Shown here: one piece after another, positions 12,325-42,665 of the stretch
Position numbering within the stretch: the stretch's first letter is position 1
Layout: every line of letters begins with the position of its first letter
DNA from: a virus
Direction: 5' to 3' (one strand)
DNA: 64,000 nucleotides
IMG/VR virus record: IMGVR_UViG_3300045988_180190
Made by a program: the position numbers and the translations under genes
Notes under the pieces: generated by a model
Told to the model about the DNA's origin: nothing
Databases searched by the model: none
Seen by the model: only the letters and a program-made list of their open reading frames with translations

Positions 12325-15300
12325 TTATCCACAAGCGGACCACCCGCAGCTATAACATTTTTTACAACCCTCTTCTCGCAGGACTTTACCCCCACAGACG
12401 GGACAGGTCTCTCCCAAGTCTAACTTACCAGCGCATTGTAACAACACCTTGTTTATAGCTTTTACAATCGATGTGAAATCTCCTTCAGTTTTAGATAGCT
12501 GATGTATAATTTCTTTTAATGATACACCAGATTGAAGATTCAAAGCTACCAGTCTTGCCAAGGCTGTAAGCGTTGCCTTATCCGAGGACTCATTTGTTTT
12601 AACTATTTTGTAATGGAATTTGCCGTCCTTAGAGGTAAACTCAAATGTAGCTTTAGCTATTTTTCTTAATGTTCCCTCCTTGACGTGTTTAGGTATAATC
12701 CTACGGCGTTCAACCCATTCTCCTTCGTCATCAAATATATTATCCTCATTTATATCTATAAACATCTCAAAGGGGCAATCTCCAAGAAAGCTTACTATAA
12801 AGTAGTAGGATACTCCTTTGACTGTTCTAAAGAATACCCTACAAGGCAAAACGTCTGGACGTTTATCAGCAGTTATTGTTGGGTGGATAATAGAAGTAGA
12901 AGTTGGATTTACGTCTTCTTTAGCATCTGTAGACTGTAAGACGGCACTCATTGAGCCTTCTCTGTAGGTAGTAACCCCTTTAATTACTCCGCTATTATAT
13001 GCGTCTAAATAAACGTTCTTAAACTGTTCATAAGGATAGTCCTTACCGACATTTATCGTTTTACTTACAGCGGAATCCAAATGCGCAGATACGAGTTTCA
13101 GAATTTCCAGATGAGATTCAACAGGCAATTGCATAGCTGTTGTGAAAACTTCCTGTGGATATTCTAAATTATGATCCTTAATCCATTGATAGGCATAATC
13201 TCTTATGAGCACCTTCTTGCAAAGACCTCTATCCTTATGTATCTGATACTCTACGCCATCTTCTCCTGTGTAAGTTAGATACGTGAAGTCAGCATATTTA
13301 GCTTCTTTAAAGTACGCATTAGGTTTAAAGTCTCCCTCCCAGAATCTAGGGCATTTATCTCTTAGAAAATCTGGAATATTAGGCATTCCTACGATGCGGT
13401 AGTACTCTAGTTGAAATACAGGTTCTACGCCTCCTGAAATATTATTTGCCAAACAACCAGTATTTCCCGTGGGCTGGACTGAGAACAAGGCTGAATTGCG
13501 AATGCCGTTAGTTTCTAACAATTCTTTTTGCAAAGCATCCAATATATACTTCGGCAGATGTCTAAACGTATATTTTATATTATCAGCATGTTTTGCAGGA
13601 TTACATCCTTTAAACGCACCTTTACATTTAGCTAAAGCAATGCTTGCCCTTATCCCTAAGAAATTATAAACATCAAAAACTTTAGTTAAAAAGTCTTTAG
13701 CTTCCGTAGAATCATATTTTAAACCCAACATCATTAAGGCAGAACCTATGCCTGTAATGCCAAGTCCGATTCTTCGATAGCTTTCAGCCATATATTTATA
13801 TTCTTTCAAAGGCAGATTCGCAATGTCTATGACATTATCCAAGAATCTTACGCAATAAGGAATAATATCGGAAAACTTCTGAAAATTAAAAACAGCAGCG
13901 TGTTTGATTTCATCATATTCTATAAATGCTGTGAGATTGATGGATCCTAAATTGCAGCATCCTCCGCTGTATAAAACCTGCTCTCCGCACTGCTGATTAT
14001 TAAGCATATAAAATTTTGGATGTCCATGTTCGTTCACAGTTTCAAACATCCCAACGCAATAATTATGCACATCATCAACTGTACCGGTATAGACATCTTG
14101 TTTGCCTATATATTCAATAGACACAATTCTATGATTAAAATCAACAGCCTGCGTCTTTAAATCCGCGTAAGAACGGAAAGCAGAAATCGGACCAAATCTA
14201 TGAGGAATCTTATTTTGTTTGCAATAAGAATCAAACTCACATTTAAATGGATCTCTTGACAGAGCAAATTTTAAATCCGTATAAGCTTTAAGTTGTCTTA
14301 TTCTATTCTCACCTTTTGTCTTAGAAGCATAGTTTGAAATTCCCTGTCGCAAATGCTGTATGTAATTTTCCTGCTTAAGTTTGTTACGATTCACACAGAG
14401 ATTTGAACAAAAAGCTACTTCCCTGCTTTGGAAAGGTGTAAAGAACTCTTTACCACAATTTTCACAAATCTTTTTTACTAAAACTCTATTATTAACAATC
14501 TTTGTTTCATAACCTTGTGATACGGCATTTAGATATGTTCTTTGCAACCTACTATCACATTTCATTAAATCATTATAAACACCTAAAGCTTTAGCAGCAT
14601 ATTTACAAATATCACGAATACCTCCGCCTCCAAAAAACTTGACACGATAATCATCATTAAATGACTGTAATACGTGAAAACCTCTAGAAGCTAACTCATC
14701 TTGTAATTCTTTTACAGAGAAGAATCTTTGATATTTTAAAATTAAATCTTTCGCAATATCTAAAAGTATCTCATTAGAAACACCTTTATAATTCTTATTC
14801 TTTTCTCCAAATGAAGCATTTTTTTGCTTCTCTTTATAGGAATCCCACTTTGCCTTAGTCCACTCTGTAGCGGCACGACACATAGGATTAGTCTTTCCAA
14901 ACATACGCTTACAATGTAAAGCATCATGCGCAGCTTTTGACATAACTTCTAAATTATCTAAAGAATTATTTAATCCGTTATAATCCTTATGATGCACAAC
15001 TTCTGCATTAGTGAGTCTTCTACCTATAACATATTCAGCATTAATGCGATGTAATGCCTTGCGAGACTTTTTTCCGGAAGTCTTTATCCAAGCATATAGT
15101 TGAGAATTACTCGATCTATTAAAGATTTCATTAAACTTCTGGTATGAAATAGAAGCAACATACAAAGATTCTCCTGGGGACATATCTTTTACCTCTTTAT
15201 ATGTACCATCGGATAATCTAAACTTATGATTAGACGTGCAATCAATATGATTACCATCATCTAAAGTCACTCGATAAATATCTTTATTATAGCCTGTAAT

Positions 15301-16467
15301 ACGAGGATTACGCATTAACTTTGTAACAATATTGCCAGCATTATCACAAGCTAACACCGGAACATCTCTGCCAGCTTCGGCCAACTCTTTAATAGTCACA
15401 TTTGTACGCCCGTCAGCAACAGCAACTTTGGTATCTCCAGTAAGACAAGGATTTGTCCCAACTAATTGCAACTCAGGTATATAGTTTGCGCAATGTGTCT
15501 CATTTGCCCTATCGAGAAATAAAACTCCAGGTTCCGAACGATTGCTAGTAGACTGCATTAAAGCTTCCCACAAATCCGTAGCCCTAACTGTGCGATAAAC
15601 TTTAACGGGGTAACCTTTTTTCTCCCATTTATCCAAGTCTCCATCCCATTCGGATTTATATTTTTCAAAAGCCGTATCAGGAAATCTCAATTGCCAAAAA
15701 TCAACAGCATCGATTTCTTCCTGCGAAGCATTGTTTTTAACAAGATCGTTAACTCTATTTAAAATATCCATAAAAGCATTGGTAACATTTACGGACATAT
15801 TCATTTTCGTTAAATGAAACGGCTTTTGCTTGGCAGTAATAAATTCGTAAATATCAGGGTGCCAGCAGCTTAAGCATAGCATCATTGCGCCCTTACGAAT
15901 TTTCTTCTTTTCGTTCTTGGGCGTTTTTTCTTTACTCTCTATATAATAATCTCCCGGACCTTCCGTAATAATCTCGGAACTTTTATCAAACAGCTCCAAA
16001 TACTTCACAGCGCCGGGTGTTCTAGCACCTATGCCTTCTATATAAGAACCTCTGGGACGAATAAAACTGCAATTTAAACCCCAACCCCCTTCAGATTTTA
16101 AAGTCAAAACCTGATTCTTTAAGACCTCCATGATTCCTTCAACGGAATCCATATCATACTTAGGTTGGGGGGATAAAAAACAGTTGACGAGGGAGACATT
16201 TGTGCAATTTCCCCCGGCATTTGCCAATATGCGGCCTCCGGGTATAAACTTAAAATCTTTTAAAATATCATAAAAAGCATTGGCATAAAATCTTTTGGAT
16301 TCGTCATCCTTTTCTACGTTAGCTACGGCATTTGCCACACGTCTCCATGTATCTGTAATACTATTTTCATTTTGCGTTTTATAAGTTACTTCCCAAATCT
16401 GACGGGAAAAATCATTCGTAAACGGATCCGGATTATCCGGAGTTTTTGCTTTTAATTGTTCGTCCAT
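12325..16467 (-). CDS. nrdJ: class II (adenosylcobalamin-type) ribonucleotide reductase interrupted by an HNH intein
   Basis: Active-site loop GTNP[intein]CGEQVLYSGGCCNLGSINL. Cys-rich C-terminal tail CPVCGGKVLREEGCKKCYSCGWSACG. No NrdB-like partner is in the window. Confidence 0.85.
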   Translation of the reverse strand: MDEQLKAKTPDNPDPFTNDFSRQIWEVTYKTQNENSITDTWRRVANAVANVEKDDESKRFYANAFYDILKDFKFIPGGRILANAGGNCTNVSLVNCFLSPQPKYDMDSVEGIMEVLKNQVLTLKSEGGWGLNCSFIRPRGSYIEGIGARTPGAVKYLELFDKSSEIITEGPGDYYIESKEKTPKNEKKKIRKGAMMLCLSCWHPDIYEFITAKQKPFHLTKMNMSVNVTNAFMDILNRVNDLVKNNASQEEIDAVDFWQLRFPDTAFEKYKSEWDGDLDKWEKKGYPVKVYRTVRATDLWEALMQSTSNRSEPGVLFLDRANETHCANYIPELQLVGTNPCLTGDTKVAVADGRTNVTIKELAEAGRDVPVLACDNAGNIVTKLMRNPRITGYNKDIYRVTLDDGNHIDCTSNHKFRLSDGTYKEVKDMSPGESLYVASISYQKFNEIFNRSSNSQLYAWIKTSGKKSRKALHRINAEYVIGRRLTNAEVVHHKDYNGLNNSLDNLEVMSKAAHDALHCKRMFGKTNPMCRAATEWTKAKWDSYKEKQKNASFGEKNKNYKGVSNEILLDIAKDLILKYQRFFSVKELQDELASRGFHVLQSFNDDYRVKFFGGGGIRDICKYAAKALGVYNDLMKCDSRLQRTYLNAVSQGYETKIVNNRVLVKKICENCGKEFFTPFQSREVAFCSNLCVNRNKLKQENYIQHLRQGISNYASKTKGENRIRQLKAYTDLKFALSRDPFKCEFDSYCKQNKIPHRFGPISAFRSYADLKTQAVDFNHRIVSIEYIGKQDVYTGTVDDVHNYCVGMFETVNEHGHPKFYMLNNQQCGEQVLYSGGCCNLGSINLTAFIEYDEIKHAAVFNFQKFSDIIPYCVRFLDNVIDIANLPLKEYKYMAESYRRIGLGITGIGSALMMLGLKYDSTEAKDFLTKVFDVYNFLGIRASIALAKCKGAFKGCNPAKHADNIKYTFRHLPKYILDALQKELLETNGIRNSALFSVQPTGNTGCLANNISGGVEPVFQLEYYRIVGMPNIPDFLRDKCPRFWEGDFKPNAYFKEAKYADFTYLTYTGEDGVEYQIHKDRGLCKKVLIRDYAYQWIKDHNLEYPQEVFTTAMQLPVESHLEILKLVSAHLDSAVSKTINVGKDYPYEQFKNVYLDAYNSGVIKGVTTYREGSMSAVLQSTDAKEDVNPTSTSIIHPTITADKRPDVLPCRVFFRTVKGVSYYFIVSFLGDCPFEMFIDINEDNIFDDEGEWVERRRIIPKHVKEGTLRKIAKATFEFTSKDGKFHYKIVKTNESSDKATLTALARLVALNLQSGVSLKEIIHQLSKTEGDFTSIVKAINKVLLQCAGKLDLGETCPVCGGKVLREEGCKKCYSCGWSACG
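13990..15447 (-). other. intein (486 aa) with HNH endonuclease domain in the RNR catalytic loop
   Basis: It starts CLTGDTKVAV (Cys codon 15447-15445). HNH motif is EVVHHKDYNGLNNSLDNLEVMSKAAHDALH. Zinc finger is CENCGKEFF...CSNLC. Block F is VYTGTVDDVHNYCVG. It ends ...KFYMLNNQQ|CGEQ (last Gln codon 13992-13990). Confidence 0.8.
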
Positions 16468-24067: not shown

Positions 24068-27000
24068 TTAAACATTTTTCAGTTTTAGCTGAAAAATATC
24101 TGCAGCGCATATTCTAGCTGGCATTACCAAATACCTTGAGTGTACTACCATCATATAATGTTCTCCACTGGCGGTTTTGATCATAACTATATCATACCCA
24201 CAATAGAGATCCTCAATTTTACTTGGATGTTTAGGCATAAACCTAACTACATTAGTATAATCAGGTATACACTTTGAAAGTACGGCTTTGTCTAATAGTG
24301 CAAATAAAAGGTTATCTTGCACTTTAATCCCTTCTTCAAGACTTTCCACTTTTATGATACTCCTACGGGAACTTGTCACTGTGGAATAATCTACAAAGTT
24401 TAAACCTGAGGGATTTGATATTTCTATGCGAGTCCTTTGGTAGTACTCATTTGTTACTAAGTTATTACTATTAAAATAATTATCTAGAGTGTCATTTATA
24501 AATGGTATTTTAGTACAAGCATTTATGTGGTCTAGATCCTTATCTTCATATGGTTTAACGATCCTAGATAAAGCTTTGGATATAATAAGCTTTATGGTGT
24601 CATCTAATTGATCACCGTAGGTTTCTTTAACTCCTATTTTTATCCCATAAAGGAACTCGAGTGCACTTAACAGCATATTGCTTGTGAGCACAGTACATAA
24701 AGAGGTAGACTCCACAATACGTGAAATCGAGTTTTCTTTAAGATAGATTTCCGTGTTAAATACTCCCCCGTTCGCGTATTGACCTTCGTCCAAATAATTC
24801 CTTACTTGATTCAGTTCTTTTGTATCATTCCTAAATATAATTTGGAACAATGCATTACTAAGATCTATAACAGAATACTTTCCGAGTACCGGAGTGAATG
24901 TTTTAATGGAGTCACCCCAAGTATCTTTTACATTGGCGGATTCCGCATTATTTATATACAGCCCCACGATACCCAATATATTGCTGTCATATATTGCCTG
25001 CTGTACAGCACTTTCATAGTTGCCAAGGCACACTCTATAGTTGCATCCCGCAGCACTATGCACTGAAGCTTTATATGCATATATACTTGGACGCGCTGAT
25101 TCCAGATATGTGATTGTATTCACATTTATTGGATCAAAAATCTGGTCAACAATGTCGTCTACATGATCATTGAGTGTATTAGCCTTTTTGCTGTAACCAA
25201 TTATCTTTAGAACTTCGTATCTTTTAGGGCTTTTAGAATAAAGATATATACCCGTGGAAGAGCTTACTTTACCTCTGCTAAAGTCTACTGGAATATATAA
25301 TCCAAGTACTCCAAGTTCATATTGTAAACCCGTCCTAGGATCCGTAATAGGATTTGGTTGGAAGGATACCTCAATACCGTCCTTGCACAGAATTACTTCT
25401 ATAATTTTTTTATTTTTTCTCAGATTATTAATCTGAGTAATTATATTATCGCAAGTGGAGATATCTTGTTCCTTTGTGAAGTCTAAATCCTTACATTCCA
25501 GTAACTTTTTGTTTAGCTCCTCGATTTCTTTTAGCTTTTCATTTCTCGCTTTTATTAAGCTGTTACTGTCGCTAAAGCTATCTAGAAAACGTTGCCAATA
25601 TACGTGGAAGCAATTAGTTTTAGTTATATAATTGATGAGTGCCTGCGTTGTAACACCTTTTAAGTGTACTATATCGTTGAGACACAACATTGTAGAGTTA
25701 TAATCCTCATCGTATTCTATTAGATCTCCTAAATCCATGCTAAGGTCACCTCGGATCTTAGATACCCAGTCCATATACATATGGGGATGCTTAAATGCAT
25801 TTCTTATAACTATTTTACTTATATTGTTTTGAAATATATAAGGTTCTAGCCTGTTGCTAAGATACTTAATCTGCTGTACTTTTTGATCATTAGTAGTAGT
25901 GATATCAACAAGTATTTCGGATAAAGCAATCTGGAAATTAAGATCTCTAATTTTTCCCGCGTCTCCATTACTGACTGCTACTGGTAAGGATAACTGTGCT
26001 GCTACTGGATTGAAAATTCCATAGATAGCCTCCATGTTTTGCGAAAACAGTAGTAGGTCACTATAGTAGAACATTTCGAACTTGTCCGCCATCGGTGTTA
26101 TATCTACAAAGTCAAACAAATTTGTGTATCCAATGTCTAACTTTGGGTATATACGCCTCCAATTATACGACTGCGTATAAGGTCGCATATCAACAATTTC
26201 AGACTTATCCGGAACTAATCCCATTAACATGCTTTGGTGACACTCTTTTCTGTCTCTTGTATCTGGGACGGACATTGTTGGACCGTTATAGAAACAATCT
26301 TTCAGGTATTCTATCAATTTACTTCCCTTGTATTCTTCTAGGGAATTATCCATTGCCACATTAAATACTTGTGCTAGATTCCTTGAGGAAGAATACTTAT
26401 CTCGTTGTATTGTGTAGACACCTTGGATCCCTTTCCACCTAAAAATTTTATGCCCGTTTTCTACACGGGTTTGGAAAGGTAGCGCTTTGTAGGCCACGGG
26501 TAGTGACGCAACTGTTAGTATTTGGGTAACACTTTTTACCCTGAATGCTTTCATATCCAGATATATATTATCTGGAATGTAAACTTTTAGATTTGTGTGA
26601 GGCAACACTTCTGTGGGAAAATCTGAAATAGTATTTTTCCATTCTGCTACCGTTTTATCTTTATTTATCGCATAATCATACGTTATAAAGTTGAGGGATA
26701 TAGCTTTGTATTGAGCTTCTTTATTTTTTGAATACTCATGGAACGCGTCTAACAGTTCGTTTAAATAGTCCAAGTTCTTTATCAACTGTAGATACGCTAT
26801 GATATAAAAATTACCTTCATTTAGGTCTAATACTATATCTTTTATAAGTTCGGAAAAATCCAACAATCCCTCCAAAGTCATCCTGTTAGGAAGATAGAGG
26901 TTATTGTACAATTTATCTCCAAAATCAACTCCACGCATTAGGAGCTGACAAAGATATCCATTGACATTTCTTGCTATTGCTTCACTGGTAGTCCTCTTAT

Positions 27001-27871
27001 TCTTTAAGAATTGTATATCTTGAAAGAATACCAAATGCCTACTTAAATTTTTTCTAAGGAGAGCATATTTTTTACCTGTTTTAACTTGGTCTATTAGATC
27101 ATCGAATAGCGTTTTAATGATATAACTTTTTGATTCATTAAACGTATTCAGTTTTTCAGCTATTTTATTTAGTTGTGTAGTATCGCTTGCTGATAAATAT
27201 TGTTTCAGTATTTTAAGATAATAAGAGGGATCCACAAATGGTATAAAAATTCTTTCATCTCTGGAATTAAAAAATAAAATTGTGTCAGTCTTGGACTTTG
27301 GCCATATCTTTACACATCCAAATGGGAAGCACTCGTTGCGACTTGATGGGTCAAACGTACTACTGCATCCTGTGATGTTAAACTTATCTAAATCTTCTGT
27401 ATACCCAGAAAACAGTTGCACTTCATTAAATAGTGGACGCAGTACCTTGAACCTATCTAATAATTTAGAGTCATTATCTCCAAATATATCATCTATAAAT
27501 TTGCCTATTACAGGAAAAATACAGTATGGATTATTATAATTAAAAAATAGGTCCGTCTCTTTTCTAGATAGAGATGGTTCCTTCCACACGTCTAAAAGCT
27601 TCTTTTCATCTATCTCCAATAAACCTGACTTAGTATTAAGCTCAAGTTCAGATACTTCGGTATCTTCTATTTGTGTGGAGTCTACGTTAAACATTGCGTA
27701 GATTCCCATTAGCCAATTAAATGAGTCTTTTTTCGGAATAGTTTTCAAATATTCCACAGTTGCCATCGGAACCTCCATGAGAATACGGTTCCTGTAAGGA
27801 ATGGAATAGCTGAACTGTTTCTTAAGTTTTACATTACGCTTTTTCTTATTAAAAATATCATCAATTGTCAT
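24068..27871 (-). CDS. large hypothetical protein (1267 aa)
   Basis: Uninterrupted 3.8-kb ORF with an ATG start. I could recognise no P-loop, polymerase or structural motif. Confidence 0.8.
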   Translation of the reverse strand: MTIDDIFNKKKRNVKLKKQFSYSIPYRNRILMEVPMATVEYLKTIPKKDSFNWLMGIYAMFNVDSTQIEDTEVSELELNTKSGLLEIDEKKLLDVWKEPSLSRKETDLFFNYNNPYCIFPVIGKFIDDIFGDNDSKLLDRFKVLRPLFNEVQLFSGYTEDLDKFNITGCSSTFDPSSRNECFPFGCVKIWPKSKTDTILFFNSRDERIFIPFVDPSYYLKILKQYLSASDTTQLNKIAEKLNTFNESKSYIIKTLFDDLIDQVKTGKKYALLRKNLSRHLVFFQDIQFLKNKRTTSEAIARNVNGYLCQLLMRGVDFGDKLYNNLYLPNRMTLEGLLDFSELIKDIVLDLNEGNFYIIAYLQLIKNLDYLNELLDAFHEYSKNKEAQYKAISLNFITYDYAINKDKTVAEWKNTISDFPTEVLPHTNLKVYIPDNIYLDMKAFRVKSVTQILTVASLPVAYKALPFQTRVENGHKIFRWKGIQGVYTIQRDKYSSSRNLAQVFNVAMDNSLEEYKGSKLIEYLKDCFYNGPTMSVPDTRDRKECHQSMLMGLVPDKSEIVDMRPYTQSYNWRRIYPKLDIGYTNLFDFVDITPMADKFEMFYYSDLLLFSQNMEAIYGIFNPVAAQLSLPVAVSNGDAGKIRDLNFQIALSEILVDITTTNDQKVQQIKYLSNRLEPYIFQNNISKIVIRNAFKHPHMYMDWVSKIRGDLSMDLGDLIEYDEDYNSTMLCLNDIVHLKGVTTQALINYITKTNCFHVYWQRFLDSFSDSNSLIKARNEKLKEIEELNKKLLECKDLDFTKEQDISTCDNIITQINNLRKNKKIIEVILCKDGIEVSFQPNPITDPRTGLQYELGVLGLYIPVDFSRGKVSSSTGIYLYSKSPKRYEVLKIIGYSKKANTLNDHVDDIVDQIFDPINVNTITYLESARPSIYAYKASVHSAAGCNYRVCLGNYESAVQQAIYDSNILGIVGLYINNAESANVKDTWGDSIKTFTPVLGKYSVIDLSNALFQIIFRNDTKELNQVRNYLDEGQYANGGVFNTEIYLKENSISRIVESTSLCTVLTSNMLLSALEFLYGIKIGVKETYGDQLDDTIKLIISKALSRIVKPYEDKDLDHINACTKIPFINDTLDNYFNSNNLVTNEYYQRTRIEISNPSGLNFVDYSTVTSSRRSIIKVESLEEGIKVQDNLLFALLDKAVLSKCIPDYTNVVRFMPKHPSKIEDLYCGYDIVMIKTASGEHYMMVVHSRYLVMPARICAADIFQLKLKNV

Positions 27872-27896: not shown

Positions 27897-27930
27897 AAAA
27901 AAGGGAGCTATAGATTTTCTATAGCTCCCC
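27897..27930 (-). terminator. rho-independent terminator after the Ubl-like gene
   Basis: Minus strand reads GGGAGCTATAGaaaatCTATAGCTCCCtttttt. Confidence 0.7.
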
Positions 27931-27954: not shown

Positions 27955-28455
27955 CTAGTTACCCTTAGATTGAGTGGCAATCTGAATGAAATCGCCGTCA
28001 TTCGGAACTATGAATGCAGCGTCGCCAGAGATATTATCTCCAGCACCATTCAGACGCACGTCCCACATTCCGCTTTCTACGTCTATACGAACATCCGGGA
28101 AATTGTCCAGGATCATCTTTACACTCCAGTTAGACGGTACAGTTACTTCCCTAAGCTGTGATTGGAACGGCACTACCGTGACCGTTTTTGTTGCAGCCGG
28201 TGTTTCCGCTTCATCTTCTGCCGTGGCACGGTTGGTTTCTTCTTCTTGAGGTTCTTCTACCTGTGTTTCTTCTTCGACTGTGTTGATATAGTTTATCACG
28301 TCTTCCTTCAAAGAGCTGAAGGAACCCCAGTACTGGTACATATCGCCTTCAGATATTATCTTATTCCTTCCACGAATAATGCGGTCCCTTATGAGTTTGG
28401 AAACGTTGTAGTTGATGGATTCTGCTATAGTTTCGATGATTTCGTTCTTTGTCAT
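27955..28455 (-). CDS. putative ubiquitin-like (ThiS/MoaD-type beta-grasp) protein with N-terminal helical domain and acidic linker
   Basis: The C-terminal ~75 aa are TVTVVPFQSQLREVTVP...VRLNGAGDNISGDAAFIVPNDGDFIQIATQSKGN. They follow the ThiS/MoaD pattern (..NG......v.dGD.i.i....G) and end Gly-Asn. The gene is adjacent to the E1-like and JAB genes. Confidence 0.5.
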   Translation of the reverse strand: MTKNEIIETIAESINYNVSKLIRDRIIRGRNKIISEGDMYQYWGSFSSLKEDVINYINTVEEETQVEEPQEEETNRATAEDEAETPAATKTVTVVPFQSQLREVTVPSNWSVKMILDNFPDVRIDVESGMWDVRLNGAGDNISGDAAFIVPNDGDFIQIATQSKGN

Positions 28456-28549
28456 ATTGTTTATTCCTTTTTTGTTATTGATTGATTGTTGACTAGTTGT
28501 TGATTGATTAATGATTGGTTATTAATTGGTTTTTAATTGCTTGTTAGTA

Positions 28550-29263
28550 CTACACCCTATACATAAAGTTAAAGTTAGGGCAAACAGAAAATAAAAGTTC
28601 AAACTCTGGGAAAATTTTTACCTTTTCTTCAGTCTGATCTTTTTGTGATACAGTCCATTTAATAAACTGCCATACAGCCATGGAAGCTACCATAGAAGAA
28701 GAGGCTCCCATCATTAGTTTAGTTCCACATTCACTAGTCTCAGCTTGGTCATCCGAGTACAGTGTCTTTTCCCAACGTGTTTGTCCGACTATGTCAGTAG
28801 GATTAAATGTATATACCCTACCTTGTGTTGCGGACAAGCGTGTCTCAACACATATTTTTGTTAACGAATATTTTAAGCAGTTTTCGTATATCTCCTTTCT
28901 TGATGCCATTGTGTCGGTTAATAGAAATACAACATCCCCTAAAGTACCTGTGGAGCTATCCACAAATTCTTTATGTGTTATAATGTCTATATCCGTTATT
29001 GATTTGATAAGTTGTTTTAGCGCTTCAACTTTTGGTTTCCCAACGTCTCCAACACCATACAACTGATTGGGAAGATTGTGGCTTTCCACCTCATCGTTAT
29101 CCCACACATGGATATTTTTTATACCCATTTTTGCTAACTGTAAAACGACATAGGAGCCAGTGGCACCAGCTCCTATAACGTCTATACGCAAATTTTTACT
29201 ATTGAATTGGTGCGGGTCAAGGAAGTGTGCTTGCCTTTCAAAATCAATTTGTTCAAAATTCAT
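28550..29263 (-). CDS. E1-like / ThiF-MoeB family adenylyltransferase (small, no E2 domain)
   Basis: Rossmann motif IDVIGAGATGSY. ThiF signature VWDNDEVESHNLPNQLY and GKPKVEAL. Candidate Cys in TSECGT. Confidence 0.85.
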   Translation of the reverse strand: MNFEQIDFERQAHFLDPHQFNSKNLRIDVIGAGATGSYVVLQLAKMGIKNIHVWDNDEVESHNLPNQLYGVGDVGKPKVEALKQLIKSITDIDIITHKEFVDSSTGTLGDVVFLLTDTMASRKEIYENCLKYSLTKICVETRLSATQGRVYTFNPTDIVGQTRWEKTLYSDDQAETSECGTKLMMGASSSMVASMAVWQFIKWTVSQKDQTEEKVKIFPEFELLFSVCPNFNFMYRV

Positions 29264-29266
29264 ATG

Positions 29267-30043
29267 TTATTTAAAAAACTCCTTATTTGTCAGTTTCCCT
29301 ATTTCTCTAGACTCTTCAGGTTGCTTTAATATAACTCCTTCGTCACAATTCGGTTTTTGATAATCTTTTGATAGTGCGTTATCGAAAGGGTGACCCCAGT
29401 GACTGCAATTACTGGATGCATCAGCCTTGTCCATATATGAAGAAGTTTTCCAACTCCCAATACTATAGTAACTTGGCTTGGGTTTTATCTCGGAAACTTT
29501 AGTCCTTATATCCTCAAGAATTTCCGTAATAGTTTCATCTGGAAGATTCCATTTTGTTTTAACCTCAAGATCTTCGTAAGCGATTCCATGTTCAAAATCA
29601 TAGAAATCTACTCTTATGTCTCCTCGTTTATTAAATATAGCCGCAATAAGATACGGTTTTGTTTTAAACGTTAGCGCATTACTTAAATCTTGTCCACTAG
29701 GGGACACTGACATATCTACGTGGGAATGACCCCAGAAGTTTAAAGAGTTTAATCGCTGCTTCTTCTGAGCATTTGTAAGCGTGTTATCTTGAATGATACT
29801 AGAGGTTAGCTCATTAAGACCTTCTGCCGACTGCTCAGTAGTTGTAGCACTACGCTCTTGCTTTGTAATAAATACATCCGTAATAACATATATCTCACTA
29901 TTGGGATTATGGGAAACACTTCCCATAAATCCAATTTCCATAGGCTCATGGTCCACAATGAACCTTATTTTTTCAAAAGCATGGGAATCAATATAAACTT
30001 TTGGTATAAAAAATTTTTCTGTATCAAGAATTTTTATATTCAT
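29267..30043 (-). CDS. JAB/MPN (JAMM) metallopeptidase
   Basis: Glu in EPMEIGFMG. HSHVDMSVSPSGQD matches HxHx7Sx2D exactly. There is a ~90-aa C-terminal extension. Confidence 0.85.
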   Translation of the reverse strand: MNIKILDTEKFFIPKVYIDSHAFEKIRFIVDHEPMEIGFMGSVSHNPNSEIYVITDVFITKQERSATTTEQSAEGLNELTSSIIQDNTLTNAQKKQRLNSLNFWGHSHVDMSVSPSGQDLSNALTFKTKPYLIAAIFNKRGDIRVDFYDFEHGIAYEDLEVKTKWNLPDETITEILEDIRTKVSEIKPKPSYYSIGSWKTSSYMDKADASSNCSHWGHPFDNALSKDYQKPNCDEGVILKQPEESREIGKLTNKEFFK

Positions 30044-30048
30044 AGTTA

Positions 30049-30612
30049 TTACTTTCCAGTTGATCCGAACCCACCCAAATTACGCTCACTTTTACTAAGT
30101 TCCCCATTACGCTGAAACTCTACGTGCACAGTGGGTTCAAACTTTACCTGTGCAATACGATCTCCCTTATGGTACGTCATTGGACGGTTACTGATTATAT
30201 ATTCGTCTACTGCACGTTTAAAAATAGATTTCCATCTCTTACACAAACCTATAGCTCCAGAGTCATTTAGATCTTGTGTTTTCGTTTTTTCGATTCCTAT
30301 TTTCAATGCATTTAGCATAGTAATCCCCGGTAATTTATAAAGCACTACACCCCATTCATTACGGTAGTCACTGTCAATAGTTCCAGCCTTTACAGTTACC
30401 CTGGAACCAACGGGCATTGAACTGCGCTCTAGCAATCTTGCCCCATACCCAGCTGGGATTTCTGTATGAAGACCCGTTTTTGCTATTACGAGTTCCCCAG
30501 GGAAGATTGTAACATCTTCCTCTAGGTATACATCAGCGCAATGGGCGCCTTTGGATTTATATTCGGGAGCTTTTGCAGCCCCAGTGTATTTTACAATAAT
30601 TTTTGTATCCAT
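30049..30612 (-). CDS. dut: trimeric dUTPase with an internal insertion
   Basis: Motifs GAHCADVYL, LLERSSM, GTIDSDYRNEWG, GDRIAQV, RNLGGFGSTGK. There is about 45 extra aa between motifs 3 and 4. Confidence 0.9.
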   Translation of the reverse strand: MDTKIIVKYTGAAKAPEYKSKGAHCADVYLEEDVTIFPGELVIAKTGLHTEIPAGYGARLLERSSMPVGSRVTVKAGTIDSDYRNEWGVVLYKLPGITMLNALKIGIEKTKTQDLNDSGAIGLCKRWKSIFKRAVDEYIISNRPMTYHKGDRIAQVKFEPTVHVEFQRNGELSKSERNLGGFGSTGK

Positions 30613-30645: not shown

Positions 30646-31116
30646 TTAGAGTGAAAGCCCTAACTTTTCCTTACACACTTCATAAATTTCTTTTGTAATT
30701 TCAGTTACATCCAAAATTTTAAAGTAGTAAGAAGTTCCTTCTAAGTGAAAAAATCTATCACTATCCTCACTTATCACAATATTCAAAGTTTCTCCCCAAT
30801 CAAATTGGTCGTTTAAGATTTCCCATACACCTGTATCAGGTTCTTCGATAAACTCTTCTAAGGTAACAGTAGGAGGACTAAACACCGAAGAATCAAAGCA
30901 AATAACTTGCTTTCCTATAAAGACCAATTCGCTTGTGTCTACTTTTTCGGAGTATTCACCGGATATTTCCTTTATAGCATGTGCATTAGCCATACCCATC
31001 TCGTCTGACGTTGCTTCAGGCTCTTCTTCATAGTAAGAGTCTTCCCCATAGTCTTCAGGTTCTATCCATTGTTCTATCGCTACTAAGTAAAATTTCTTAT
31101 CATCCTCAGTATCCAT
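30646..31116 (-). CDS. acidic hypothetical protein
   Basis: ATG start, 156 aa, very Asp/Glu-rich. Confidence 0.6.
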   Translation of the reverse strand: MDTEDDKKFYLVAIEQWIEPEDYGEDSYYEEEPEATSDEMGMANAHAIKEISGEYSEKVDTSELVFIGKQVICFDSSVFSPPTVTLEEFIEEPDTGVWEILNDQFDWGETLNIVISEDSDRFFHLEGTSYYFKILDVTEITKEIYEVCKEKLGLSL

Positions 31117-40092: not shown

Positions 40093-40504
40093 AAGGTTTA
40101 AATTCTTTAAATTGGTTATAGTTTGTTGAGTATAGAATACGTTTAAAGTGAAACATATTTAATACTCGTTGGCAGTTTACACACGGTTTGGCGTTTGCCA
40201 GTAACCCATTGTTGTCTATCCTAATATTAACTAATGTTAATTTATGATAGTCGTTTCTAAATAAAATTTGTTTTATACAGGCAATCTCTGAATGTAAACC
40301 TATGGTATGTGTATACGCAATAGGTTTATATTCATTATACTTGCCAAAAATTTGGTAAGGATGCAACTGTGTATAATCGTTATACCCAATTGCTATTACC
40401 TTACTTCCTCTCAAAGCTACTGTGCAATGAAATGCCCTTCCTGTCTGTAACGCTTCCTTTGCTAGTTTAGCTTTTTTGACAAGCGTTCTTAGAATTGGTT
40501 TCAT
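40067..40504 (-). CDS. cytidine/deoxycytidylate deaminase-like zinc enzyme
   Basis: HSEIACI (H[AS]E) and PCVNCQRVL (PCxxC) at the correct spacing. Confidence 0.75.
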   Translation of the reverse strand: MKPILRTLVKKAKLAKEALQTGRAFHCTVALRGSKVIAIGYNDYTQLHPYQIFGKYNEYKPIAYTHTIGLHSEIACIKQILFRNDYHKLTLVNIRIDNNGLLANAKPCVNCQRVLNMFHFKRILYSTNYNQFKEFKPYEMDCCNL

Positions 40505-42665
40505 GCAAATATTGCTTTCTTACTTCAATAATACTATGGTTAGCGGCATAGTCTTGGCTTTTGGTTTTTAGCCAATTTACAAATAAAACTTCATCTTGGT
40601 CGATAAATGTTTGTTTTAAATTGTTTCTAGCGTAACCTTGCATTATACCTCTGAAACGTTTCCACTTTTTATAGAAATTGGTTTTAAACTTAAACCTAAA
40701 GTTGTTTGCATCCACAAACACAAAGCCTTCGTGTCTTAGTCTCTTTTCGTTTTCCAATTTCGTTAATTCCTTTTCCAAGCTACTCCAATTATCATAGGTC
40801 TTATACAATTCCTTATATGGCATACCCCAAGAATCAGCAAGCTTTACCAGCTCAGGATAAGGTACATACGTTTCAGAAAAATCATTGCTTATAATATCCA
40901 AGAGAACAATCTTTGGGACATCATATTCAATTATATGGGGATCATTCTTAGGATCAATGACTTCGAAAATTAGCGTTACATTATTTTCCTTTGCATACTG
41001 TAGTGCATTTTCACAGAATATATAGCTATAAAACAAAAGCTTAAACCAATCTGCGTGCTCTCCTTTATTTGTTGATTTTGAGGAAATAAATGGTTTTTGC
41101 TTTTCTTTATCCCAACTTACTAATCCCAAGAATCCATTTTCTTTTTTGTAAGCAGTTACAGGAAACACTAAGTTTTTGCTCAAAGCAGCTAATGAGGTCG
41201 TATTGTTCTCTTTGAGGTTAAAAAACTTCTCATAGCTTCTTGCTATGATTTCATCACCTCTGCAGAACAAGCCCCTAGCTTTTACACGCATTGTATCCCA
41301 GGCTTTTGACAGAAACACGTCTCTGCTAAACTTGTAGGATACTATGTCATCTTCAAGCTTCTGTTTTAGTATATGCTTATCATTGTTTAACGATTTAATT
41401 ATTTCATTATTAGATTCCGGGTCATTTAATTGCCTTACTGTAACTGGAGCGGGCTTATGCACAGGGTTTTCAAAACTAAGAATTCTCGTTTTGCATTCCC
41501 CACACACTTCTCTGAGTTCTAGCACTCGCAAGGGTTCTCCATATTCTACCGCTGAGTTCAAGTTAATAACTTGATCCTCTGCATTGGGAACAGTATGTTC
41601 AAGATTCCTATGCCCATGTGCCTGGCATATGAAATCTGGATATCTTGACTTCCAAGCTTCCGCTACTTGCGATACGTCCTCATACTTCCCGACTCCCTTT
41701 ATGTACTCTACAGTCGATAGCTTAAGACTCGGCAGCACAGGAATACCCCCATGGGTTACTAGCCAGGTTTTATCATGATAATTGAAAAACGCTAGTTGAC
41801 CTAGAGACCTGCAGAATTGCCTAATGTCAGATACATCTATAGATTTGATTTGTGGGAGCGTATTGTCCCTAAACTCACTAGATCTAATCTTCTCAAAATC
41901 TTTTGGATCTTTCGAAGAATAATACCTAAGCCAAGCTTCGTGATTGCCTTCCAGACACAATACGTTTTTATTTTTGGAAATCTCTATGAAAAATTCCAAG
42001 GTTTCCTTGTTTTGGATACCCCTATCTATGTAGTCTCCTACAAAGATATATTTATTGTTTTCACTGAAAGGATTTTCCTTGAAGAACGCTTTTATAGGTT
42101 CTACGCAACCATGTATATCTCCAAATATATAGATTTTTTCAGCACTGCTATAATCTATTGGACTGAACCTCGAAATCATATCCAATGCTGCTTCAGGAGA
42201 TACAATGTGATATGCAGACTTCACTTGGTTATTCTCCGAGTTAAATACCGCATACATTTTGCGGATAACATGCTCAGGAACTACTTTATATCCAGTTCTA
42301 CCCGCATTTCTTCTGATGCATTCCTCCTCGGATATGTTCGTAAAATCTACAACAAAGACTCTATACCTATATTTTTCGATTAGATGCTTGTAAGCATTAA
42401 GCAACTCCCGTTTATAATGGGTGGCACCAATGATCACCATGTCACCATTTGACATTCTAAGCTCTAGGGTTTCTTTTAGCAAAGCCCATACCTTACTGTC
42501 CATTCTCTGGCTGATTCCAAGTTCTCCCGATGTATTAAGCACGGGAGAAGACATCATTGTGCGGATATTATCAGCACAAAGCGTATATGGCTCCAGCTCA
42601 TTATTCTTTATCCAAGTTGATTTTCCAGAGCCAGGAGCTCCTCTTAGCAAAAACAATGTACGCAT
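40467..42665 (-). CDS. pnkp: Pnkp-type RNA repair protein: polynucleotide kinase - metallophosphatase - ligase-like adenylyltransferase
   Basis: P-loop LLRGAPGSGKSTW. Calcineurin-type motifs IFGDIHGC, VGDYIDRG, LEGNHE, QAHGHR. The C-terminal domain has a nucleotidyltransferase Lys motif YKKENGFLG. Confidence 0.8.
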   Translation of the reverse strand: MRTLFLLRGAPGSGKSTWIKNNELEPYTLCADNIRTMMSSPVLNTSGELGISQRMDSKVWALLKETLELRMSNGDMVIIGATHYKRELLNAYKHLIEKYRYRVFVVDFTNISEEECIRRNAGRTGYKVVPEHVIRKMYAVFNSENNQVKSAYHIVSPEAALDMISRFSPIDYSSAEKIYIFGDIHGCVEPIKAFFKENPFSENNKYIFVGDYIDRGIQNKETLEFFIEISKNKNVLCLEGNHEAWLRYYSSKDPKDFEKIRSSEFRDNTLPQIKSIDVSDIRQFCRSLGQLAFFNYHDKTWLVTHGGIPVLPSLKLSTVEYIKGVGKYEDVSQVAEAWKSRYPDFICQAHGHRNLEHTVPNAEDQVINLNSAVEYGEPLRVLELREVCGECKTRILSFENPVHKPAPVTVRQLNDPESNNEIIKSLNNDKHILKQKLEDDIVSYKFSRDVFLSKAWDTMRVKARGLFCRGDEIIARSYEKFFNLKENNTTSLAALSKNLVFPVTAYKKENGFLGLVSWDKEKQKPFISSKSTNKGEHADWFKLLFYSYIFCENALQYAKENNVTLIFEVIDPKNDPHIIEYDVPKIVLLDIISNDFSETYVPYPELVKLADSWGMPYKELYKTYDNWSSLEKELTKLENEKRLRHEGFVFVDANNFRFKFKTNFYKKWKRFRGIMQGYARNNLKQTFIDQDEVLFVNWLKTKSQDYAANHSIIEVRKQYLHETNSKNACQKS

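Follow-up and report, generated by a model that had tools for sequence, protein, structure and literature searches.

A phage locus predicted to encode a four-component ubiquitin-like conjugation system

Four adjoining genes and their conservation as a set

The 64,000-nucleotide stretch of viral DNA analysed here (IMG/VR virus record IMGVR_UViG_3300045988_180190; hereafter the window) carries four adjoining minus-strand genes that, judged from sequence, probably encode a phage ubiquitin-like conjugation system composed of a ubiquitin-like protein (Ubl), an E1, an E2-like protein and a peptidase of the JAB deubiquitinase type. According to the list of open reading frames (ORFs), the JAMM/JAB peptidase gene (29267-30043; 258 amino acids, aa) is followed by a minimal ThiF/E1-like gene (28550-29263; 237 aa), the gene of the Ubl protein (27955-28455; 166 aa) and a gene for a giant protein with an E2-like domain (24068-27871; 1267 aa), the rest of which belongs to no recognisable family. 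A first-pass annotation of the same DNA had described the first three as a triad without an E2, forming the end of an operon closed by a terminator near 27897-27930. All three ORFs are present at exactly the coordinates it had given, and a terminator-like hairpin, with a 13-bp stem followed by a T-run, was located at 27902-27930 (minus strand), between the Ubl and giant genes. The unit supposed to end at this hairpin was not borne out, and neither was the lack of an E2, as the adjoining 1267-aa gene beyond the hairpin carries a UBC-like domain with a conserved Cys. The family of this domain is referred to below as X.

The four families recur together in other phages. A census of 80 viral loci, anchored on the E1 alone and extending 7 kb to either side, recovered all four families in 65 loci, with JAB present in 79 and X in 75; ten loci held E1, JAB and X only, six of which represent the window-type lineage, where the Ubl falls under the strict cut-off. 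The order of the genes varies, being X-JAB-E1-Ubl, Ubl-X-JAB-E1 or Ubl-E1-JAB-X among relatives and JAB-E1-Ubl-X in the window. An independent scan of 185,579 species genomes, in which the X motif was the sole criterion, returned six contigs, all from metagenome bins; E1 adjoins X in all six and is followed in each by a ThiS-like ORF, and JAB lies between X and E1 in three. The co-occurrence of the cassette families is far beyond chance. The first-pass annotation had proposed looking among relatives for co-conservation and for an E2 or sulfurtransferase partner: the former favours a functional unit, of four parts rather than three, and of the two partners the E2-like protein was found (in the 75 loci mentioned above), while no sulfurtransferase occurs among the called neighbours in the sampled loci. 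A DNA-level search of GenBank phages with the locus gave no match, and tblastn searches with the Ubl, a 428-aa X protein and an 866-aa SbcC-like protein gave no useful one.

The ThiF/E1-like identity earlier given to the 237-aa protein is confirmed by Pfam ThiF (PF00899), which recognises it well above the gathering threshold (E=1.8e-30; 106.3 bits, cut-off 28.1). The protein contains the GxGxxG loop (GAGATGS, residues 31-37), the DxD element, the sequence DNDEVESHNLPNQ at residues 55-67 and the catalytic Asp equivalent to MoeB D130, and its profile matches the solved MccB, PaaA, ThiF, MoeB, Uba1, Cap2 and BubCD. It consists of the adenylation domain only, with no inserted CYS domain, rhodanese or fused E2; the earlier statement that the enzyme has no E2 domain was correct, the E2-like domain sitting in the next gene instead. 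The 66 unique members of the family are 215-260 aa long and share the invariant residues R10, G31/G33/G36, D55, D57, N63, N66, Q67, K78, D117, R122, D171 and Cys179. Conservation across these 66 sequences is at least 98-100% for the ATP-site residues (G31/G33/G36, D55/D57, K78, D117 and R122) and 100% for Cys179. In NCBIfam, the best matches of the E1 are ThiF models, all far under their cut-offs, as are the ThiF/MoeB models; with the PRTRC ThiF model TIGR03736, the one PRTRC component compared, the protein reaches 39.3 bits where 144.75 are required, and so falls outside PRTRC. In PADLOC, the best 25 of 31 matched families are all of the Cap2-type 'E1-E2' kind, with only the Rossmann part of these models covered. 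By homology, the enzyme is predicted to carry out the ATP-dependent adenylation of a C-terminal carboxylate. The terminator scan also reported a second hairpin with a 13-bp stem inside the E1 gene (29149-29177, minus strand), overlapping the region that codes for GxGxxG.

The 258-aa protein had been described as a JAMM peptidase with an HxHx7Sx2D motif, and the motif residues are present (H106-S-H108-x7-S116-x2-D119, HSHVDMSVSPSGQD), together with E36 in MEIGF; all five catalytic residues (E36, H106, H108, S116 and D119) are invariant in the family alignment. A family profile of four sequences matches Rpn11/BRCC36 over approximately 190 residues (best E=0.002) and aligns with the Rpn11 active site. 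Taken alone, the window protein scores 12.6 bits with Pfam Prok-JAB, beneath the cut-off of 25, and matches the PADLOC JAB model weakly (E=0.018); the JAB protein of a relative, locus L020, reaches 3.6e-4 with Prok-JAB. The peptidase is predicted to mature the Ubl and probably also deconjugates it.

Several variants of the arrangement were encountered. In a gut-phage lineage represented by human-gut metagenome contigs of approximately 105 kb (L013-L017), a tyrosine integrase gene lies two genes away from the cassette, suggesting that temperate phages are among its carriers, and the surroundings also contain genes for an RlaP-like nucleotidyltransferase and HAD_SAK_2. In locus L020 (3388-8558), X (730 aa), a 152-aa ORF, JAB (457 aa), a 276-aa ORF and an SNF2 helicase occur together, and the E1 hidden Markov model (HMM) detects no E1; its place may be taken by the 276-aa ORF, either as a very diverged E1 or as a substitute. 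In Flavobacterium phage FpV4 (L001, gp51-gp50) and Bacteroides phage PhiCrAssBcn1 (L023, gp85-gp86), a weak JAB-like protein lies immediately upstream of ThiF. The ThiF genes of FpV4-like and crAss-like (Kehishuvirus) phages carry the label 'thiamine biosynthesis protein', and beside them the HMMs found the weak JAB only, with no convincing X or Ubl; these pairs are likely diverged, misannotated relatives of the cassette.

The Ubl, its processing signal and the E2-like domain

The 166-aa protein by itself matches no family in Pfam, PHROG, PADLOC or NCBIfam. Phages whose E1 is approximately 45% identical possess, directly after the E1 gene, a separate gene for a protein of 73-77 aa ending in KGN, and the last 79 residues of the window protein (aa 88-166; nucleotides 27955-28194, including the stop codon) align with these stand-alone proteins. 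Residues 1-87 (28195-28455) comprise an N-terminal helical extension and an acidic linker. A deep HMM, built from the 80 E1-anchored loci and iterated to 95 unique domains with window-type loci excluded, found the 166-aa ORF as its unique hit (E=3.6e-4; next ORF 0.58) and orthologs at 8e-5 and 1.3e-3. Searched against solved structures, a 33-sequence profile of the family matches SAMP2 (9e-6) and PF1061 (5e-5), then RnfH, MoaD and ThiS, and one relative (L018) exceeds the Pfam gathering scores for both Ub-RnfH and ThiS; sequence and profile searches of PDB and Pfam with the small Ubl alignment returned nothing. Because the deep HMM links the window ORF to a family that matches SAMP2, ThiS, MoaD and RnfH, its C-terminus was assigned to the beta-grasp fold, and the first-pass suggestion of such a fold in the C-terminal 75 aa or so holds for the last 79 or so. 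On these comparisons, the window Ubl is read as a diverged member of the family with an added helical N-terminal extension of about 87 aa.

The window protein ends in QSKGN, that is Gly165 (codon 27961-27963) followed by Asn166 (codon 27958-27960), and K-G-N is invariant in both alignments of window-type and stand-alone Ubls. The terminus would accordingly be described as one conserved Gly after Lys (K-G), masked by Asn166, and its exposure would need proteolysis at the predicted JAB processing site between the two residues (27958-27963). Nearly all Ubls in the census show a Gly followed by a short tail, and the element that stays constant across the 84 Ubl ORFs is this Gly, usually after Lys. 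What follows it varies (N, NN, NK, NI, NRW, A, AR, SR, S or TE), and may also be the next Ubl repeat or a domain of approximately 85-93 aa. In 26 of the 84 ORFs, from two to four Ubl repeats are encoded head to tail, as in ...QVKGN/SGMIKIG...QVKGN/SHTVTV...QVKGNK-stop. A fixed Gly with variable tails and repeats is the signature of a precursor that needs a peptidase cut after the Gly, and the earlier proposal that JAB could trim the residue behind it is strongly backed by this comparison. The variable residues after Gly also disfavour Asn as the functional terminus. A parallel exists in the Bil system, where the JAB protein BilC pre-processes the BilA Ubl and exposes its Gly (PMC10557695). The Ubl genes are diverse (L018 4236-4868, L026 4387-5049, L028 525-1220 and census loci L030-L109), some consisting of triple or quadruple repeats and others carrying a zinc-ribbon-like or 85-93-aa domain after the Gly; such appended domains may be released cargo or pro-domains.

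In distant relatives, a protein of 406-428 aa always precedes the JAB gene, and its C-terminal domain contains HPH-x3-G-x-A-C-L-G-N, similar to the HPN...C of E2 enzymes. A similar stretch, VHSAAGCNYRVCLGNY...ESANVKDTWG, is found in the window's 1267-aa protein, which has no match in Pfam. The UBC/E2-like domain of the giant protein spans approximately aa 850-1010 (24842-25324, minus strand), and its landmarks are YELGVLGLYIPVDF (851-864), His938, CLGNY with the candidate catalytic Cys948 (codon 25028-25030) and ESANVKDTWG (977-986); the motif around the cysteine reads VHSAAGCNYRVC948LGNY. Searched exhaustively with HMMER, a domain profile of four sequences, none of them a giant protein, delineated a family of 1,814 clusters (50% identity) at E<=1e-3, with 712 at E<=1e-10, and neither Pfam nor PHROGs recognises any of the 1,814. 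With an HMM from 150 X members, again excluding giants, the window giant is the only significant hit among 455 ORFs (E=1.1e-6; next ORF E~1), its orthologs scoring 2e-7 and 9e-7. This domain HMM superseded one made from the full-length 406/428-aa proteins, which had found nothing significant in the window.

Profile-profile alignment of the X family with four canonical E2s in hhalign gave a probability of 89% and E~2e-6 over 116 columns, with a score of 43-47 against 11.5±2.2 for shuffled controls; the E2 reference sequences were validated against PDB (E~1e-73). The alignment spans alpha1, beta1-4 and alpha2, pairing HPH with HPN and the invariant Cys with Cys85 of UBE2D2. This Cys is invariant in 84 X sequences and, as in E2 enzymes, follows the HP[N] motif at a distance of about 8-10 residues, the Asn of HPN being His in the X family. 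For a 428-aa member, AlphaFold2 (AF2) returned a confident model, with a predicted local distance difference test (pLDDT) score of 82, and 85-98 in the E2-like domain, where strands, loop and helices occur in the expected order; the same model contains an N-terminal alpha/beta domain and a long coiled coil. The domain was termed UBC/E2-like because the deep HMM, hhalign and the AF2 secondary structure agree, and the assignment, which rests on profile-profile similarity and linkage, is good but not conclusive. Foldseek of the X model against a viral library retrieved uncharacterised phage proteins only, and X-domain profiles searched against PDB sequences produced interferon or coiled-coil noise only.

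At the C-terminus, many X members carry a zinc ribbon or treble clef of the form CxxC...CxxC (weakly matching the Pfam Zn_ribbon_3 and Rhp7 treble-clef models), which could be a RING-like, E3-like or substrate-binding module. The X motif is also found in cultured 227-kb jumbo phages: Xanthomonas phage PhiXhv-12 encodes an 892-aa protein (L002 1238-3916) with FYIGQYQIALSL...IHPHM...HGSLCLGSF directly upstream of a 'thiamine biosynthesis' ThiF gene, and Erwinia phage Ep032 and Xanthomonas phage Ep026 show the same arrangement. No recognisable JAB or Ubl was found near these X-ThiF loci.

Genomic setting, proposed mechanism and rival explanations

Upstream of the cassette in the window lie a dUTPase (30049-30612, minus strand; Pfam dUTPase 4.8e-18, phrog_135) and a helicase, identified with Pfam and PHROG. 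The adjacency of the dUTPase is not kept with the cassette in other phage lineages, and neighbours differ among loci. The cassette is surrounded by approximately 60 kb that form a module for replication and nucleotide metabolism, in which there are helicases, a UvsX-like recombinase, DNA polymerase, ribonucleotide reductase, primase, DnaB, SbcC and a Pnkp/RNA ligase. Between helicase and dUTPase, a strongly acidic 156-aa protein (30646-31116, minus strand) has no family match, and its position is kept in locus L005 (145 aa). The large subunit of the ribonucleotide reductase (12325-16467, minus strand; 1380 aa) contains an HNH-endonuclease-like insert at approximately aa 452-549, which may be an intein or a homing-endonuclease insertion. 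A 732-aa fused polynucleotide kinase/phosphatase and RNA ligase (40467-42665, minus strand; phrog_8238, E=3e-189) resembles a tRNA-repair enzyme, which hints at the use of anticodon nucleases by the host.

From homology and comparative anatomy, we infer the following sequence of steps. JAB would cleave after Gly165 of the Ubl and remove Asn166, and in relatives it would cut poly-Ubl precursors and remove longer tails or appended domains. The E1 would bind ATP, adenylate the exposed Gly carboxylate and then probably form a Ubl~Cys179 thioester, from which the Ubl would pass to Cys948 of the UBC-like domain in the 1267-aa protein. The giant protein would transfer it to lysines of target proteins, a modification that JAB could reverse. 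The large non-catalytic parts of X proteins, namely the alpha/beta domain and coiled coil of the 428-aa form, the zinc ribbon that many carry at the C-terminus and the more than 1000 residues in the window, may choose substrates in place of an E3. In the window lineage, the helical N-terminal extension of about 87 aa would travel with the Ubl as cargo. As the cassette always lies among early or middle replication and nucleotide-metabolism genes, its expected time of action would be genome replication, with proteins of the host or the phage as targets.

A number of results weigh against a four-component conjugation system. On the side of the E2-like protein, Foldseek of the whole three-domain chain of the 428-aa model against PDB returned nothing significant, UbcH7 ranking twelfth (E=1.6, TMt 0.40), and HMM-vs-sequence searches with X in PDB and Pfam retrieved no E2 and no UQ_con/Prok-E2. 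In the giant protein, only about 55 residues around the Cys align significantly, the HPH motif is degenerate (VHS) and an insertion of approximately 60 aa must be assumed; moreover, a strong terminator-like hairpin separates its gene from that of the Ubl, so that the two may be transcribed separately. The canonical Arg of NLxRQ is replaced by the invariant Asn66 in all 66 E1s. The Ubl of the window is divergent from its family: the AF2 model of the 166-aa protein, based on 12 aligned sequences, was unusable (pLDDT 45), a small HMM without window-type sequences ranked the three orthologs 1-3 of 455 ORFs at non-significant E-values (0.15-0.56), and hhalign of the window Ubl against the family gave P=3.7e-4 with a score equalled by one of 60 shuffles.

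Conjugation might instead proceed without an E2, as in archaeal sampylation, with Ubl, E1 and JAB sufficing and X or the giant protein being a substrate, a scaffold or an unrelated partner. Among solved structures, those closest to the Ubl family are SAMP2 proteins, whose conjugation in Haloferax is known to need no enzyme but the E1 UbaA; the lack of UBC-fold confirmation from Foldseek, the hairpin that sets the giant gene apart and the 5 of 80 loci without detectable X point the same way. We nevertheless regard this as unlikely, given that X is as tightly linked to E1 as JAB (75 of 80 loci and all six motif-selected contigs) and that hhalign pairs its invariant Cys with the catalytic Cys of E2s at the probability reported above. 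Quite unlikely, in our estimate, is a device that serves mainly for counter-defence, with no targets of its own, by which the phage would subvert host Bil, type II CBASS or Bub, for instance if the JAB deconjugated host Ubl marks or if host enzymes were titrated or mis-charged. Antiphage activity is known from host systems built of these enzyme classes (PMC10557695; 10.1101/2023.09.04.556158), the E1 scores with the Cap2-type E1-E2 models of PADLOC, and the cassette is phage-encoded and widespread; a deubiquitinase (DUB) alone would do for this purpose, yet four parts co-vary, including a Ubl with its own conserved processing site. This explanation bears on what the cassette is for and could hold alongside the chemistry set out above; as such a role, the interference with host ubiquitin-like defence suggested in the first-pass annotation is a possibility.

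The first-pass annotation had also considered a thiocarboxylated Ubl serving nucleotide or tRNA modification. In such a sulfur-carrier pathway, the Ubl thiocarboxylate would donate sulfur for a nucleotide, a tRNA base or a cofactor, and JAB would only mature the carrier, like QbsD and Mec+. The minimal ThiF/MoeB-type E1, whose best NCBIfam matches are ThiF models (albeit far under their cut-offs), the matches of the Ubl family to ThiS and MoaD, and the position of the cassette among nucleotide-metabolism genes all agree with it. This E1, however, has no rhodanese domain, and the neighbours called in the sampled loci include no cysteine desulfurase, rhodanese or thiolation ATPase. An E2-like Cys enzyme that is conserved would have nothing to do in a sulfur relay, and both poly-Ubl precursors and Ubls bearing a cargo domain at the N- or C-terminus are what protein modifiers typically show. 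The sulfur-carrier explanation is disfavoured and, we consider, very unlikely: protein conjugation is preferred over thiocarboxylate formation because of the E2-like enzyme, the poly-Ubl precursors and the closest solved relative, SAMP2, a protein-conjugating modifier. Scarcely credible is a chemistry like that of MccB, in which the E1 would act on the terminal Asn (by a succinimide or peptidyl-nucleotide route in the style of microcin C) and the functional end of the protein would be Asn166. Asn is the last residue of MccA substrates, many family members terminate exactly in KGN, and PaaA and MccB are the top solved-structure matches of the E1 profile (E~1e-16). The Asn, on the other hand, is often followed by one to three residues or by a repeat and is replaced by Ala or Ser in some members, with the Gly conserved; the match begins at about residue 113 of MccB, the N-terminal peptide-clamp region having no counterpart, and JAB and the E2-like protein would be left unexplained. 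This candidate was rejected on the ground that Asn is not conserved as the terminus.

Relation to known systems and significance

The analogy with Bil and CBASS drawn in the first-pass annotation is supported. Bil (BilABCD, 'ISG15-like') unites the same four classes, Ubl, E1, E2 and JAB deubiquitinase, and some BilA proteins have overhangs of 2-9 aa after the Gly (PMC10557695; 10.1101/2023.09.04.556158). The two differ in several respects: Bil is a bacterial defence system, whereas the phage cassette sits in phage replication modules; the phage E1 is an adenylation domain of 215-260 aa, whereas BilD has a separate CYS domain; and the phage E2-like protein belongs to a separate family without a Pfam or PHROG model, located, unlike in Bil, at the end of coiled-coil proteins of approximately 450 aa or inside proteins of more than 1000 aa. 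The phage Ubls are single or consist of two to four tandem beta-grasps with a single Gly (K-G), while BilA is an ISG15-like di-Ubl, and what PADLOC lists for the cassette are Cap2-type 'E1-E2' models (the best 25 of 31) and a weak JAB match. The cassette would work like Bil and is not a member of it. It shares the E1, E2 and JAB chemistry of type II CBASS, and the Rossmann region of its E1 matches Cap2 models; Cap2, however, is an E1-E2 fusion, whereas the phage E1 and E2-like proteins are separate, and CBASS conjugates the C-terminus of a CD-NTase, whereas the phage has a dedicated Ubl. In the loci sampled, the cassette has no CD-NTase linked to it, although no systematic search for one was made.

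The archaeal SAMP/UbaA/HvJAMM1 system resembles the cassette in having SAMP2 proteins, the closest solved relatives of the phage Ubl family, a minimal E1 of the MoeB/ThiF kind and a JAMM protease that undoes the modification. It differs in that sampylation proceeds without an E2 and in that SAMPs, which also serve as sulfur carriers, terminate in GG; in the phage set, an E2-like protein is tightly linked and the Ubls have K-G followed by tails that would be removed. Head-to-tail repeats that need release by a DUB, the last of them capped by one or more extra residues, are also a feature of eukaryotic polyubiquitin, yeast UBI4 ending in an extra Asn, and the X family shares the UBC-type signature of beta-sheet, HP[NH] loop, Cys and helix with E2 enzymes. 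The phage Ubl differs from its eukaryotic counterpart in being ThiS/SAMP2-like in sequence and in having a single Gly instead of Gly-Gly, and the E2 motif is HPH instead of HPN; no RING or HECT E3 was identified with the phage cassette. Bub is likewise a bacterial Ubl/E1/E2 set with a Ubl-maturing peptidase, and BubCD is matched by the E1 profile. In Bub, intermediates are oxyesters with Ser, BubCD has no catalytic Cys and the peptidases are serine proteases (PMC11601596), whereas cysteines are invariant in both the E1 and the E2-like protein of the phage, whose peptidase belongs to the JAMM metalloenzymes. A phage beta-grasp Ubl with a C-terminal Gly, together with a JAB protein predicted to cut after it, was described in TAPI (Ubl) and TAPK (JAB+NlpC) of lambda and T1; these lie in tail modules, act in tail assembly and have no E1 or E2, whereas the cassette has both an E1 and an E2-like protein and occupies replication modules (Iyer et al., 2006; PMC1779556). 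The membership features of type II CBASS, Bub, PRTRC and the sulfur-carrier pathways, including CysO/Mec+ and QbsE/QbsD, are not those of the cassette.

No description of a phage-encoded Ubl-E1-E2-JAB cassette was found in a full-text literature search that does not extend to most subscription journals, and none is given by Iyer 2006, Chambers 2023, Hör 2023, Ye 2024 or Iyer 2021; the last, a survey of jumbo phages, mentions neither JAB nor ThiF. Ubiquitin-like conjugation as such is known, and what appears new is a virus-encoded version of it that combines a minimal E1, poly-Ubl precursors and a new E2-like family; an earlier description may exist. The analysis also defines a large X/E2-like family absent from Pfam and PHROG models, and points to natural polyubiquitin-like precursors outside eukaryotes. 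The genes annotated as 'thiamine biosynthesis protein ThiF' in crAss-like, FpV4-like and Xanthomonas jumbo phages likely encode E1 relatives and not thiamine enzymes.

Prokaryotic Ubl conjugation has so far appeared as a host antiphage weapon (Bil, type II CBASS and probably Bub) or as a sulfur relay. A full Ubl-E1-E2-DUB cassette in phage replication modules would reverse the picture of a host weapon, and the same four-part kit recurs in many uncultured phages. The wider proposition, that tailed phages widely encode ubiquitination-type machinery, with an unrecognised E2-like family of at least 1,814 clusters and polyubiquitin-like precursors, and use it to tag host or phage proteins during replication, seems to us evenly balanced between holding and failing. 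If true, it would amount to a viral post-translational takeover or regulatory system in prokaryotes, comparable to the use of ubiquitin by eukaryotic viruses, and these phages may represent a reservoir for the exchange of parts with cellular Ubl-E1-E2-DUB systems, including antiphage ones.

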